From an uncultured Gammaproteobacteria bacterium (GTDB lineage: Bacteria; Patescibacteriota; Patescibacteriia; UBA9934), in contig CAZTKG010000001.1 in assembly GCA_964613815.1 (NCBI GenBank), positions 8,895 through 72,894 of the forward strand: a stretch of 64,000 nt of DNA. Reading direction: 5' to 3'. The translations under genes were made by a program, and so were the position numbers. Below are positions 1 to 64,000 of the stretch, one piece after another. Every line of letters starts with the position of its first letter. Positions within the stretch are counted from its first letter, which is position 1. The notes beneath the pieces were generated by a model that saw only the letters and a program-made list of their open reading frames with translations, did not search any database and was not told where the DNA came from.

Positions 1-468
1 ATTGCCCACAATATTCGCAGTCTCTATAACGTTGGTTCCATTTTTCGGAATGCGGCGGGGTTTGGGGTTTTTAAATTGTATTTGACGGGGTATACGGGGG
101 TGCCGCCTCGGAAGGAGATTTCTAAGGTTGCGCTTGGGGCGGAGCGGTTTCAGGATTGGGAAGAGGGGGAGGTTTTTGGGGTTATTGATCGGCTTAAGAA
201 GGAGGGGTATCGGGTGGTTGGGCTTGAGCAGGGGGAAGGAGCGGTTGATTTGGATGGGTTTGAGGTTGGGGATGGGAAGGTTGCGGTTGTGCTTGGGAAT
301 GAGGTTGAGGGGATCGATGAGGGGGTGATTGAAGTGCTTGATGGACTTGTGGAGATTGGGATGGACAAGAAGAAGAGTTTGAATGTGGCGGTTGCTAGTG
401 GGGTGATGATGCATGTTTTGATGGGGAAAATTCGACGAAAAAGTCATGCGGCATATGGTACAATGTAG
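1..468 (+). CDS. SpoU/TrmH-family RNA 2'-O-methyltransferase, 5'-partial (continues upstream of window)
   Basis: Frame 1 is open from nt 1 (IAHNIRSLYNVGSIFRNAAGFGV = SpoU motif I region). Downstream motif SLNVAVASGV near the C-terminus. ORF track 76..468 is the same frame. Confidence 0.7.
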   Translation: MAHNIRSLYNVGSIFRNAAGFGVFKLYLTGYTGVPPRKEISKVALGAERFQDWEEGEVFGVIDRLKKEGYRVVGLEQGEGAVDLDGFEVGDGKVAVVLGNEVEGIDEGVIEVLDGLVEIGMDKKKSLNVAVASGVMMHVLMGKIRRKSHAAYGTM

Positions 469-472
469 GCAC

Positions 473-1240
473 ATGCATTCTGTTTCGATTGTGATTCCTG
501 TGAAGGATGAGGCTGATTGTTTGCCTCGGTTGCTTGATTGCATTTCGCGTCAGACGTTGCAGCCTGTTGAGGTGATTGTGGCGGATGCGGGGTCTAGCGA
601 TGAGACACGGGCGATTGCTCGTGCTCATGGGGCTACGGTTGTTGAAGGGGGATTACCTGGTGTTGGACGGAATCGTGGAGCTGTGGCGGCGCGCGGGGAA
701 TGGATTTTGTTTCTCGACGCGGATGTGGAGCTTCATAGTGAGCAATTGCTTGAGAATGCGATGAGTGAACTTTGCAGGCGGAATATTGATTGTGCGACGG
801 CTGATGTGGTGCCGCTTGATGCGACGCGATATGACGTTGGATCGCACAAGTTTTATAACCGATATGTTCGGTTTATTGAGCGCGGGTTTCCGCATGCGCC
901 TGGGTTCTTTATTTTTGTGAAGCGAGAATTTCACGACCGTGTTGGAGGGTTTGATGAGTCGATCGTGTTTTGCGAGGACCATGTGTATGTTGATCGCGTT
1001 GGTCGGCTTGGGACGTTTCGGTTTTTGAATGATGTGGTGGTGCATGCGTCTACACGGCGACAGCGGAAGGACGGACGGTTTTGGATGGGGGTGAAATTTA
1101 TTCTTGCGGAATTGCATTTGTGGACTATTGGACCGATTCGGCATCGCGGATTTAGATACGAGTTTGGTCATCAGAAAGATTTAGATATTAATGTGAATTA
1201 TGGGGGAGCGGAATCAGCTGTTCGATCAGCAGAACGTTAA
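473..1240 (+). CDS. family 2 glycosyltransferase
   Basis: VSIVIPVKDEA...VEVIVADAGSSDET...LFLDADV: classic GT2 N-terminal DxD architecture. Start chosen at MHSVSIV within ORF 446..1240. Confidence 0.75.
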   Translation: MHSVSIVIPVKDEADCLPRLLDCISRQTLQPVEVIVADAGSSDETRAIARAHGATVVEGGLPGVGRNRGAVAARGEWILFLDADVELHSEQLLENAMSELCRRNIDCATADVVPLDATRYDVGSHKFYNRYVRFIERGFPHAPGFFIFVKREFHDRVGGFDESIVFCEDHVYVDRVGRLGTFRFLNDVVVHASTRRQRKDGRFWMGVKFILAELHLWTIGPIRHRGFRYEFGHQKDLDINVNYGGAESAVRSAER

Positions 1241-1880
1241 ACATCAGGAGGTATTGGATCGTCTGGTGCGCGAGGCGTCGCCAAGGCGGACGTTTTTGAT
1301 GCTGATGATTATTTCGAGTTTGATTGCGGTTCTTGGTTTGTTGCATGAAAATACGGCGGTGGTGATTGGGGCGATGCTTGTTGCGCCGATGTTGTGGCCT
1401 ATTTTGGGAATTAGCATGTCGTTTGTGGTTCGGGATTGGCGGATGCTTCGACTTTCTATAGTGAGTATTGTCATGGGGGTGGCGCTCGCGCTCGCGACGT
1501 CTATTACGGTGACACTTTTTTATGTTCCGCTTGGGTCTGAACTTGAGGTTGTGCGTGACATGCCGTTTTTGGTGTCAGCACTTGTTGCTGTAGGTGCTGG
1601 TGCTGCTGCGGCGTTTGCGCTTTGTTTTGAGCATATTAAAGAAGCGGTTACTGGGGTTGCGATTAGTGTTGCGCTTGTTCCACCGCTTGCTGCTATCGGT
1701 ATTGGGCTAGGTGGGACGGATTGGGACTTGATGAGCATTTCTGTTAAGGCGCTTGTGGTGAATTTGGTTGGGATCATTTTGGTGTCGATGGTGATTTTTA
1801 TGATGCTTGGGTTTGGGAGGCATCGCCGTGAGGCGATGAATGCGTCGAAAAAAGAAGAAAAGGTTTTGAGCAAGAATTAG
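1200..1880 (+). CDS. polytopic membrane protein, DUF389/TIGR00341-like
   Basis: Multiple hydrophobic segments (AVVIGAMLVAPMLWPILG, GVAISVALVPPLAAIGIGLG). The start is uncertain because the ORF overlaps the GT2 stop; an internal start at about 1299 is possible. Confidence 0.5.
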   Translation: MGERNQLFDQQNVKHQEVLDRLVREASPRRTFLMLMIISSLIAVLGLLHENTAVVIGAMLVAPMLWPILGISMSFVVRDWRMLRLSIVSIVMGVALALATSITVTLFYVPLGSELEVVRDMPFLVSALVAVGAGAAAAFALCFEHIKEAVTGVAISVALVPPLAAIGIGLGGTDWDLMSISVKALVVNLVGIILVSMVIFMMLGFGRHRREAMNASKKEEKVLSKN

Positions 1881-1881
1881 C

Positions 1882-62119: not shown

Positions 62120-62122
62120 ATG

Positions 62123-63013
62123 TTATTCGATTGCAGCGGCTCCTGAGGAGATTTCCGCGATTTCTTGGGTGATTCCGGCTTGGCGGATTCGGTTATAGGT
62201 AAGTTTGAGATCTCCTAGCATGTCCTTTGCGTTTTCTGTGGCGTTTTTCATGGCGACCATTCTTGCAGCGTGTTCGGATGCGGCGGATTCGAGGAGGGCC
62301 TGGAAGACCATGGTTTCTGCAATCTTTGGCAGGATGTAGTTTAGGACGTCTGGCGCGGAAGGTTCGAATACATGGTCGGAAATTTGTGTTTGCTCTGTTT
62401 CCGATGATTGATTGGTTTCCCCGAGCTCTGTATCTGGTTTTGATAGCGGGAGGAGTTCGATGACTCTGGCCTTTTGCGTGAGTCCAGAGATGTAGTCTGT
62501 GTAGGCGATGAAGACTTTTTCGTAAGCGCCTTTGCCGTATTCGTTTAAGATGAGTTTTCCGACCGGGATAATATCTTCTGCTTTTGGTTTGCTTGTGAAG
62601 CCTTCGAATTGGGCGATGATTGGGATATCTTGGCGTGTCAGTGCTGCAGTTCCGCGCTTTCCGATGGTAATGGCTTCGACAGGTTTTTCGAGTGATTTGA
62701 TTTTTGTTGTTGCTTCTTTGAGGACGTTTGTATTGAGTCCGCCTGCAAGTCCTCTGTCTGCGGTGAAGAGGACGATGAGGTGTTTGGGGGCGGTTTCGTT
62801 TGCTTGCAGGAGCGGATGCGTGACGTCGGGCGCTGATGCGGTGACAGATTTGACCATGTCCCATGCTGCTTTGGCGTATGGTCGCGCGTTAAGCACGGCG
62901 CTTGTTGCTCGGCGCATTTTGGATGCGGCAACAAGTTCCATTGCTTTGGTGATTTTCATCGTGTTGGCAATGGATTTGATGCGGCGTTTTACTACTTTTG
63001 CGTTGGCAGCCAT
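62123..63013 (-). CDS. atpG: F0F1 ATP synthase subunit gamma
   Basis: MAANAKVVKRRIKSIANTMKITKAMELVAASKMRRA ... C-terminal LTYNRIRQAGITQEI. Confidence 0.9.
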   Translation of the reverse strand: MAANAKVVKRRIKSIANTMKITKAMELVAASKMRRATSAVLNARPYAKAAWDMVKSVTASAPDVTHPLLQANETAPKHLIVLFTADRGLAGGLNTNVLKEATTKIKSLEKPVEAITIGKRGTAALTRQDIPIIAQFEGFTSKPKAEDIIPVGKLILNEYGKGAYEKVFIAYTDYISGLTQKARVIELLPLSKPDTELGETNQSSETEQTQISDHVFEPSAPDVLNYILPKIAETMVFQALLESAASEHAARMVAMKNATENAKDMLGDLKLTYNRIRQAGITQEIAEISSGAAAIE

Positions 63014-63018
63014 GGGGA

Positions 63019-64000
63019 TTATTCAGCGGTTTCTGAGGGGGCGTTGGTTTTTTTATAGTCTTCTGCAGCGGTGAGGATTCTTGCTTTCATTTCATCGTCG
63101 ACTTTTCGTTCGTCGTGGATTTTGTTGATGATTTCTGGTGTCTGTGTTTTGAGATGCTTCAAGAATGACTTTTCGAAGTCTTGGATGTTTTCTGGCTTTA
63201 CAGAGTCGAGCGCTCCTTCGTTCAAGAGGAGGATCATGACAGATTGTTCCGCGAAGTCGATTGGTGAGTACTGTGGTTGCTTCATGAGTTCCATGGCGCG
63301 TTTTCCTCGGTCGAGTTGTTTCTTTGTTGCTTCGTCGAGATCTGTTGCGAATTGCGCAAAAGCTTCGAGCTCTCGGAATTGCGCGAGGTCGACTTTGAGG
63401 GTTTTTGCAACGGACTTCATTGCTTTTGTTTGCGCAGCTGATCCGACACGTGAGACAGATAGTCCAACGTTGAGTGCTGGGCGTTGACCTTTGTAGAATA
63501 GATCAGATTCAAGATAGATTTGTCCGTCGGTAATTGAAATCACGTTTGTTGGGATGTATGCGGAAACATCGCCAGCTTGCGTTTCGATGATTGGAAGGGC
63601 GGTGATGGACCCTCCACCTGCTTCGTCGTTTAGCTTTGCTGCGCGTTCGAGAAGGCGTGAGTGGAGGTAGAAGACGTCTCCTGGGTAAGCCTCTCGTCCT
63701 GGTGGACGACGGAGCAAGAGGGAGATTTCTCGGTAGGCCCATGCGTGCTTGGAAAGATCATCATAAATGATGAGGACGTCGTCTCCTTTTGCCATGAAGT
63801 ATTCTGCGATGGCGCAGCCGGCGTATGGGGCGATGTAGCTTAGTGATGCTGGATCTGATGCACCGGCAAGGACGACGGTGGTGTATTCCATCGCGCCTGC
63901 TTTTTCTAGGCGTGAAACGATGTTTGCAATTTTTGATTCTTTTTGTCCGATGGCGACATAAACACACTTCATTCCTTCATCTTTTTGGTTGATGATGGTG
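63019..64000 (-). CDS. atpA: F0F1 ATP synthase subunit alpha, 3'-portion (gene continues beyond window end)
   Basis: ...[21 protein letters not shown]..., alpha C-terminal domain. The reading frame is open to nt 64000. Confidence 0.9.

Follow-up and report, generated by a model that had tools for sequence, protein, structure and literature searches.

Why should one strand of a bacterial chromosome be rich in G and T over tens of kilobases, whichever way its genes run? The question is raised by a 64,000-nucleotide stretch of DNA from an uncultured bacterium of the Patescibacteriota (GenBank assembly GCA_964613815.1, contig CAZTKG010000001.1, positions 8,895 to 72,894 of the forward strand), the whole of which is referred to below as the window. 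A sequence-only reading had claimed that the given (+) strand is G+T-rich throughout, regardless of gene orientation. The base counts of the window clearly agree with this: G 20739, C 10685, T 20020 and A 12556 (GC content 49.1%, keto fraction 63.7%) correspond to a GC skew of +0.320 and an AT skew of -0.229, with binomial z values of 56.7 for G vs. C and 41.4 for T vs. A over the whole window. The GC skew was positive in all 32 two-kb bins (range 0.12 to 0.51), and the AT skew was negative in 30 of the 32, the two exceptions lying at 12-16 kb over the S11-S4-rpoA operon. The spot counts of 60 nt given in that reading were exact (G18:C6 at 20161-20220 and G23:C7 at 27001-27060), and the window-wide counts showed neither a skew near zero nor a sign following gene orientation. 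The asymmetry is in fact stronger than had been stated.

The G+T excess belongs to the DNA strand

As an unbiased control set, we used the 41 genes of the window supported by Pfam matches, 21 on the + strand and 20 on the - strand. At third codon positions, the + strand genes showed a GC skew of +0.705 and an AT skew of -0.549, and the - strand genes showed -0.660 and +0.421 on their coding strand, i.e., the same sign on the + strand. The bias was concentrated at synonymous sites: in the + strand genes, the GC skew was +0.339, +0.008 and +0.705 at codon positions 1, 2 and 3, respectively, and reached 0.76 at four-fold degenerate sites. The composition of the four-fold sites within the window was G 0.481, T 0.325, A 0.128 and C 0.066 in the + strand genes, while the coding strand of the - strand genes gave the mirror image (C 0.469, A 0.318, T 0.142, G 0.070). 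Read on the + strand, the GC skew at four-fold sites (GC4 skew) was positive and the AT skew at these sites (AT4 skew) negative in all 41 genes; the individual GC4 value listed for PriA is unreliable, and the pooled third-position and four-fold figures use the correct PriA frame. The lowest GC4 skew was found for S4, rpoA, mreBCD and atpE, which are highly expressed or hydrophobic.

The same picture was obtained for a contiguous region of 118,079 bp around the window. Here, the GC4 skew was 0.724 for + strand genes vs. 0.726 for - strand genes, the AT4 skew was -0.405 vs. -0.445, and the GC4 skew was positive in 109 of 109 open reading frames (ORFs), a set that had been filtered on third-position skew; the gaps left by the filter were checked along the 118 kb, and no gene of opposite sign was found. 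DNA outside ORFs in this region was skewed as well (+0.27 for GC, -0.17 for AT). Over the window and the 118 kb, the neutral-site composition of the + strand was G 0.44-0.48, T 0.32-0.34, A 0.13-0.15 and C 0.07. According to the definition of Morton & Morton, in which the four-fold (D4) sites of five four-fold amino acids are averaged over both gene orientations, the orientation-independent component amounted to 0.72-0.74 for G/C (RG) and 0.42-0.45 for T/A (RT), 0.85 overall, and the orientation-dependent half-difference at D4 sites to 0.06-0.07 (G/C) and 0.06-0.09 (T/A). Since the four-fold composition of the + strand matches in both gene orientations, the bias is a property of the DNA strand, mutational and not tied to the direction of transcription. 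Selection does not account for the excess of G and T on the + strand.

Extent and reproducibility

Exact protein matches placed the window at about 295,091-359,090 of the 579,396-bp ENA scaffold SUTE22-1_SAMN10231923_METAG-scaffold_2. The domain of single polarity, with the + strand G+T-rich, covers the window from 1 to 64000 and extends past both of its ends, to at least 118 kb in all. In the region of 118,079 bp mentioned above (record 269,343-387,421), the GC skew was +0.309 and the AT skew -0.214; all 2-kb bins had a GC skew between +0.12 and +0.51, with no sign flip.

The assemblies of ENA, JGI and Logan, made independently and from several samples, agreed at 99.93-100% identity, and the "variant" contigs from other samples were 99.93-99.98% identical. 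The population is near-clonal, with 11 single-nucleotide polymorphisms (SNPs) and one indel in about 300 kb of redundant alignment over the same record interval. The derivation of a mutation spectrum from strain variants was dropped, as 11 SNPs are too few and seven of them are transversions of doubtful quality. A search for paralog families inside the 118-kb region found none.

Two codon dialects and their consequences

The sequence-only reading had suggested that codon and amino-acid usage be split by coding strand, and both turned out to be strand-dependent. The relative synonymous codon usage (RSCU) of + strand and - strand genes was anticorrelated (r = -0.57). Lysine is encoded by AAG in 73% of cases in + strand genes and by AAA in 87% in - strand genes; for isoleucine, the respective preferences are ATT (83%) and ATC (78%), for leucine TTG plus CTT (79%) and CTC (60%), and for alanine GCG (55%) and GCC plus GCA (78%). 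TAA accounts for 33 of the 57 stop codons of - strand genes, and TTG/GTG starts are commoner in + strand genes.

The proteins differ accordingly in the predicted direction, with V, W, F, G and R shifted towards + strand genes and T, I, K, N, P and Q towards - strand genes. Among the percentages in + vs. - strand genes are V 10.5 vs. 4.5, W 1.4 vs. 0.7, T 3.9 vs. 7.7, I 5.5 vs. 9.2, K 4.6 vs. 6.9, P 3.2 vs. 4.8 and N 2.6 vs. 4.2. As a control, the window proteins were aligned to their orthologs in six relatives, and counts were made of the replacement pairs that an A↔G or C↔T change connects. The residue with the G/T codon was the one found in this organism in 690 vs. 427 cases for + strand genes and in 680 vs. 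1224 cases for - strand genes; for the I/V pair, the ratio was 139:75 and 115:349, respectively. The amino-acid shift proposed from the letters alone was therefore right in its direction, but L and H, which it had included, hardly differ between the strands. The composition of ClpB, when compared with 119 homologs, was shifted only mildly (V -2.1 standard deviations, N +2.1 standard deviations), suggesting that highly conserved proteins resist the pressure.

Another consequence concerns the alternative frames. It had been stated that the antisense frames of genes on either strand are almost stop-free. A strong depletion was indeed found in one frame, the codon-aligned antisense frame of + strand genes (0.0107 stops per codon vs. 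0.047 in random sequence, i.e., four-fold), but the other alternative frames contain 0.025-0.079 stops per codon. The accompanying explanation, that the skew accounts for the many overlapping ORFs, holds: in the 118 kb, 78 shadow ORFs of at least 150 codons occur beside 91 real ORFs, and 63 of the 78 lie on the C+A-rich - strand. Gene calls also differ between records of identical DNA (L083 vs. L084/L085/L087; window positions 1-12790 and 8 kb upstream): Era, a NUDIX protein and a 203-aa ORF, all on the - strand, are called in one record, and strings of + strand ORFs of 36-130 aa appear instead elsewhere. This instability of the gene calls is an annotation hazard created by the strand skew.

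The lineage is an outlier with an ancestral polarity

ClpB served as the yardstick against relatives. It is at most 73% identical to its counterparts in GTDB and JGI relatives, and its nearest match in a collection of 5.8 billion proteins is 76% identical; the best matches (62-76%) come from metagenome-assembled genomes labelled Candidatus Uhrbacteria, Magasanikbacteria or Patescibacteria group. On the coding strand of the clpB gene studied here, the third-position GC skew was -0.707 and the AT skew +0.483. In 160 relatives, the corresponding means were 0.012 (standard deviation 0.186, minimum -0.437) and 0.052 (standard deviation 0.086, maximum 0.279), and the nearest relative, with 76% ClpB identity, had -0.215 and +0.096. 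A GC skew above 0.3 combined with a marked negative AT skew was found in none of the 160 relatives' loci, where the largest absolute GC skew was 0.27.

The polarity itself is shared. In the 63 syntenic loci of relatives with enough genes in both directions, the orientation-independent G/C skew at D4 sites, expressed for the strand that corresponds to the + strand of the window, was positive in 90% (mean +0.104, standard deviation 0.111), and the T/A component averaged 0.006. The weak skew of the same sign in the relatives indicates that the region already had an ordinary skew of such polarity in the ancestor. In the present lineage, the G/C part was amplified about seven-fold, and a large T/A component came on top of it.

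The proteins have not diverged from those of relatives to an unusual degree: the ClpB studied here shares 73% identity with that of the relative L002, and L002 in turn reaches 74-75% with L001 and L003, two relatives of its own. An accelerated evolution of PriA was considered as a cause and rejected, PriA being 25-34% identical among all relatives compared. The non-syntenic genes beside ClpB in the relatives belong, according to Pfam, to restriction-modification, transport, conjugation or metabolism, and motif scans of the relatives for core genes returned only GyrB and FtsZ, in distant relatives.

A replication-linked mutation pressure as the probable cause

Transcription, selection and artefact can be discarded in view of the sign test, the negative RSCU correlation and the agreement between assemblies, which makes replication polarity the likeliest frame. 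By analogy with other chromosomes, a strand-specific mutation pressure linked to replication would very probably be the general mechanism. The neutral sites of the + strand have C/T and A/G ratios of about 0.2 and 0.3, respectively, and a purine fraction of about 0.6. Such ratios require that C→T and A→G changes, the two hydrolytic deaminations of single-stranded DNA, occur in excess on the + strand; the purine excess would require an added asymmetry of transversions. The strand that stays single-stranded longer during replication would take the deaminations, and a pressure near equilibrium would make the neutral sites of both gene orientations converge on one + strand composition. Such a pressure would override codon preference, giving rise to two opposite dialects and to opposite amino-acid replacements on the two strands.

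The depletion of C showed no sharp sequence-context motif and was merely weaker after G and before A, which favours spontaneous damage over a motif-specific deaminase; the latter was rejected, the depletion being general and not bound to a motif. The amplification could plausibly have come from lost or weakened repair of deaminated bases or from a longer exposure of single strands, the candidates being lost repair of uracil or hypoxanthine, lagging-strand synthesis that is slow or delayed, and a changed mode of replication. The 118 kb encode two glycosylases, MagIII/Nth-like and MutY-like, as well as a NUDIX hydrolase, MazG, PriA and a PcrA-like helicase-nuclease; each of them scored below NCBIfam cut-offs, and none was informative.

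The window is part of one unbroken polarity domain of at least 118 kb, and in the simplest reading this would be part of one replichore with the + strand leading. The fuller statement, that the pressure acts within an ordinary replichore of a bidirectional chromosome whose leading strand is the G+T-rich + strand, seems to us evenly poised between right and wrong. Several points weigh against it. The link to replication is drawn by analogy and from the polarity conserved in relatives. Within the 118 kb covered of the 579-kb scaffold, neither an origin, nor a terminus, nor a sign flip was seen, and no clusters of DnaA boxes above the shuffled expectation were found there. The G-rich strand is not enriched in genes: it carries 52 ORFs (50.0 kb) vs. 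57 (51.6 kb) on the C-rich strand. Nor is it locally enriched in essential genes, as the atp operon, mreBCD and four aminoacyl-tRNA synthetase genes are on the C-rich strand, where a 28-kb run of essential genes would be odd if that strand lags. A uniform replichore predicts no positional trend, whereas the GC4 skew decreases rightwards along the region, with a slope of -0.149 per 100 kb (standard error 0.049). The AT4 skew has a slope of -0.106 per 100 kb (standard error 0.046) over the 118 kb; both slopes were obtained from the ORF set filtered on third-position skew, with expression as a confounder, so that the data suggest a positional drift that is weak and not reliable. The magnitude of 0.85 is about 1.9 times the maximum among 352 bidirectionally replicating chromosomes (PMC2099444). 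Finally, the only comparable GC skews that we found published have one sign along the whole chromosome (PMC7143001).

The likeliest of the competing explanations is the following. The whole chromosome might have a single polarity, owing to unidirectional theta replication with adjacent origin and terminus, or to a strand-displacement or rolling-circle-like replication in which one strand is always exposed; we regard this as a possible but doubtful alternative. The single sign over 118 kb suits it as well as it suits the one replichore raised in the sequence-only reading, whose placing of the atp, mre and aaRS operons on the lagging strand holds on condition that G-rich means leading. The overall GC skew of 0.31-0.32 matches the 0.33 of the Microgenomates bacterium Ch65, which, like one Collierbacteria and one Beckwithbacteria genome, has a closed chromosome with a monotonic cumulative skew (PMC7143001). 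The lack of a gene-strand bias is likewise as in Ch65, the 118 kb contain no flip and no DnaA-box cluster, the magnitude is far above that of bidirectional genomes, and a keto-polarity in both GC and AT skew with a GC4/AT4 gradient recalls the heavy and light strands of mitochondria. On the other hand, the 118 kb are a segment of at least 579 kb, and such a segment would fall within one replichore about 60-75% of the time anyway. Genomes of the Ch65 type are without AT skew and belong to a different class (Microgenomatia), in the relatives a skew of the same polarity is present at ordinary, weak strength, the gradient, at about three standard errors, is weak and comes from the skew-filtered ORFs, and unidirectional replication alone gives no stronger skew.

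A strand-specific process unlinked to fork polarity, such as strand-biased repair or modification, or recurrent uptake or recombination intermediates of single-stranded DNA, is improbable. The direction of replication was not observed here, and the skew is indifferent to gene orientation, which would suit such a process; moreover, Candidate Phyla Radiation (CPR) bacteria have a reduced and unusual DNA metabolism. Against it, we know of no mechanism that marks one strand over more than 100 kb apart from replication, the weakly shared polarity in 90% of the relatives' syntenic loci is what ordinary replication skew would produce, and the 118 kb yielded no candidate genes.

Still far less credible is transcription-coupled mutation or repair, or selection on codons or amino acids, with a uniformity that arises merely from gene arrangement. 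A small transcription component does exist, as judged from the orientation-dependent half-difference (0.06-0.09) and from the lower GC4 skew of S4, rpoA and mreB. However, genes on opposite strands show opposite coding-strand skew and the same + strand skew, translational selection could not produce the negative RSCU correlation, and non-ORF DNA is skewed too; the sign test on the 41 Pfam-supported genes and the 109 ORFs refutes this explanation. As to an artefact (strand-specific damage, bisulfite-like conversion, or a contig that is chimeric or mis-assembled), C→T conversion of one strand would leave that strand poor in C and rich in T, but the identical sequence from the ENA, JGI and Logan pipelines and several samples, together with a skew structured by codon position, intact ORFs with strong Pfam matches and a ClpB 73-76% identical to that of relatives, refutes it and leaves it a next-to-nil chance.

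Comparison with known systems

Strand compositional asymmetry is known as such; what is new here is the lineage and a variant of greater strength. In bacterial chromosomes, the leading strand has reportedly been known since the work of Lobry in 1996 to contain G>C and T>A. The window resembles this ordinary replication asymmetry in that the skew is bound to the strand, is strongest at four-fold sites, involves G and T together and has a weak counterpart of the same polarity in relatives. It differs in the missing switch within 118 kb, in the G-rich strand not being gene-enriched and in magnitude: 0.85 vs. the strongest overall replication-dependent skew in a survey of 352 chromosomes, 0.446 in Ca. 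Blochmannia floridanus (PMC2099444).

The classical extreme, Borrelia burgdorferi, has an overall value of 0.378, with RG 0.229 and RT 0.300 (PMC2099444). The window shares with it the two classes of codon usage by strand, the amino-acid shift and skews in both GC and TA. In Borrelia, the strand-specific codon and amino-acid usage is said to have been reported by McInerney in 1998 and Lafay in 1999. It is also described in PMC6042203. The skew found here is more than twice as strong (RG 0.72-0.74, RT 0.42-0.45), the DNA has 49% GC and is not AT-rich, and the RSCU values of the two strands are anticorrelated; a gene-strand bias, for its part, is clear in Borrelia, whose central origin is mapped.

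The closest published case in GC skew is Ch65 (Kadnikov et al. 2020, order UBA1400), whose closed genome has G 14.97% and C 29.83% along its whole length, A 27.87% and T 27.33%, i.e., no A/T disparity, and 449 vs. 389 genes per strand (PMC7143001). The related Collierbacteria and Beckwithbacteria genomes of this order show the same behaviour; the authors proposed unidirectional theta replication, and no close relatives outside the clade of Ch65 share its skew (PMC7143001). The window likewise stems from the CPR/Patescibacteria and has a GC skew of about 0.3 (+0.320 in the window, +0.309 over 118 kb) unrelated to gene distribution. Unlike Ch65, it has an AT skew of -0.21 to -0.23 (AT4 -0.41 to -0.45) and, judging by the labels of the best ClpB matches, belongs to a different class, outside the UBA1400 clade. 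Besides, the single sign of Ch65 was shown over a closed chromosome, while here the skew is monotonic over 118 kb.

In vertebrate mitochondrial DNA, the asymmetry of the heavy and light strands is attributed to deamination of C and A on the strand left single-stranded in strand-displacement replication. The window is similar in having one G+T-rich strand, a four-fold skew of about 0.7, implied biases of the C→T and A→G types and strand-dependent proteins; a positional gradient, which is weak here, is at most hinted at. The difference is that the DNA comes from a bacterial chromosome of at least 579 kb with PriA and ordinary replisome-associated genes. Among the "rolling-circle-like" genomes listed in Table S7 of Chen et al. 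2020, there is no CPR genome.

If genome-wide, this would be the strongest strand-specific mutation pressure that we found documented for a cellular chromosome, having arisen in one lineage whose relatives are ordinary. It would be a natural experiment on how mutation bias acts against codon preference and protein make-up, with one translation apparatus serving two near-opposite dialects. It also raises the question of whether some CPR bacteria replicate their chromosome asymmetrically and which repair losses permit such a skew. We consider it tentative that the organism represents a second, unrelated (Uhrbacteria-like) CPR lineage with a single polarity from end to end and a mitochondrion-like G+T enrichment; if true, a cellular chromosome of more than 0.5 Mb would be replicated in a unidirectional or strand-displacement-like way, and this mode would be of recent origin, the extreme skew being absent from relatives with 76% ClpB identity. 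In practice, gene-calling programs overlook - strand genes and report shadow ORFs on identical DNA, and binning or taxonomy that relies on composition may go astray.

Gene content of the window

The Pfam-supported genes of the + strand include those for MurJ, AlaRS, S11, S4, RpoA, GluRS, glycosyltransferases and ABC transporters, and those of the - strand encode Fmt, Def, PriA, ClpB, Alr, SerRS, LysRS, GreA, PBP2, MreC, MreB, the PcrA-like helicase-nuclease and AtpD/G/A. The left part of the window (446..24791) is a mainly + strand block, assigned with Pfam and written in the dialect of G/T-ending codons, with genes for GT2, DUF389, CorA, PTAC, a PKD protein, MurJ, AlaRS, two PNP_UDP proteins, the infA-S13-S11-S4-rpoA genes, a polysaccharide synthesis cluster, a 577-aa membrane protein and an ABC ATPase. 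AlaRS (8119-9894) is just 591 aa long and comprises the catalytic domain and the second additional domain, without the long C-terminal extension.

The next block (25204..31743, - strand; Pfam and NCBIfam), in the C/A-ending dialect, encodes Fmt, Def, PriA, a LigB-like protein, a 517-aa protein, a methyltransferase and tRNA-Ala(GGC). The GC4 skew on the + strand is +0.83 to +0.93 for Fmt, Def, the LigB-like gene and the methyltransferase. The tRNA is the sole RNA gene detected in the window, and an Rfam search for structured RNAs behind the low-skew spots returned this tRNA-Ala only. This block is followed on the + strand by a 200-aa ORF, an ABC transporter and MazG (32403..35387; GC4 skew +0.85 and +0.90), on the - strand by a 211-aa ORF and ClpB (35552..39725; Pfam), and again on the + strand by a 155-aa ORF, WecG, GluRS and an M23 peptidase (39884..43838; GC4 skew +0.73 to +0.83).

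The right part is a long - strand run (44759..63972; Pfam/NCBIfam) with a 293-aa ORF, Alr, SerRS, LysRS, GreA, PBP2, an MreD-like protein, MreC, MreB, a UvrD/PcrA-PDDEXK helicase-nuclease, an HhH-GPD glycosylase and atpC-D-G-A. Referred to the + strand, its GC4 skew is +0.32 to +0.80 and its AT4 skew -0.24 to -0.62. The run carries on past the window with the rest of the atp operon, TatD, MetRS and RsmI. Gene orientation thus converges in the middle of the window, being mostly + for 43 kb at the left and - for 28 kb at the right; such a convergent layout is what a terminus would show, yet the sign of the skew is constant there. About 27 kb past the window, a 1.2-kb island (18400-19600 of L176, record ~385.6-386.8 kb) has a GC content of 0.52-0.56, a skew of 0.05-0.12 and no Rfam match; a recent acquisition of DNA could be behind it, or a structured RNA that has gone unrecognised.

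Dispersed repeats and hairpins

A dispersed nested-palindrome repeat of 56-100 nt, with the structure TTTCCCATCTCGACC..GGAGAGATCT[loop]AGATCTCTCC..GGTCGAGATGGGA, occurs in the window at 15926-15981, 20075-20156, 21108-21165, 28029-28077, 36898-36973 and 60083-60139, and in the flanks at 67868-67919 and -9119..-9090 (window-relative). Two copies lie in frame within genes: the one in PriA contributes about 12 residues that the orthologs of L002 and L003 lack, and the one in the 577-aa membrane protein about 16 residues missing from L003, L004 and L006. In this respect, the repeat recalls the Rickettsia palindromic elements. An exact scan of metagenome and viral contigs for a dispersed repeat gave no match.

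Long hairpin pairs with the core TGGTCCGTACGGACCA lie directly 3′ of both ABC-transporter genes (24828-24986 and 34850-35010), and two further copies are found ~4.4-5.8 kb upstream of the window. From their sequence, they look like terminators or another family of palindromic repeats. Finally, a repeat of ~92 nt (copies 93% identical) with the palindrome CGTTGATTCCGGAATCAACG is present at 39714-39805, 59110-59178 and 60633-60724, with one more copy ~3.4 kb upstream of the window. It has no Rfam match and marks the 5′ ends of three - strand genes, namely clpB, that of the HhH-GPD glycosylase and atpC, so that it may represent a shared leader or promoter element.

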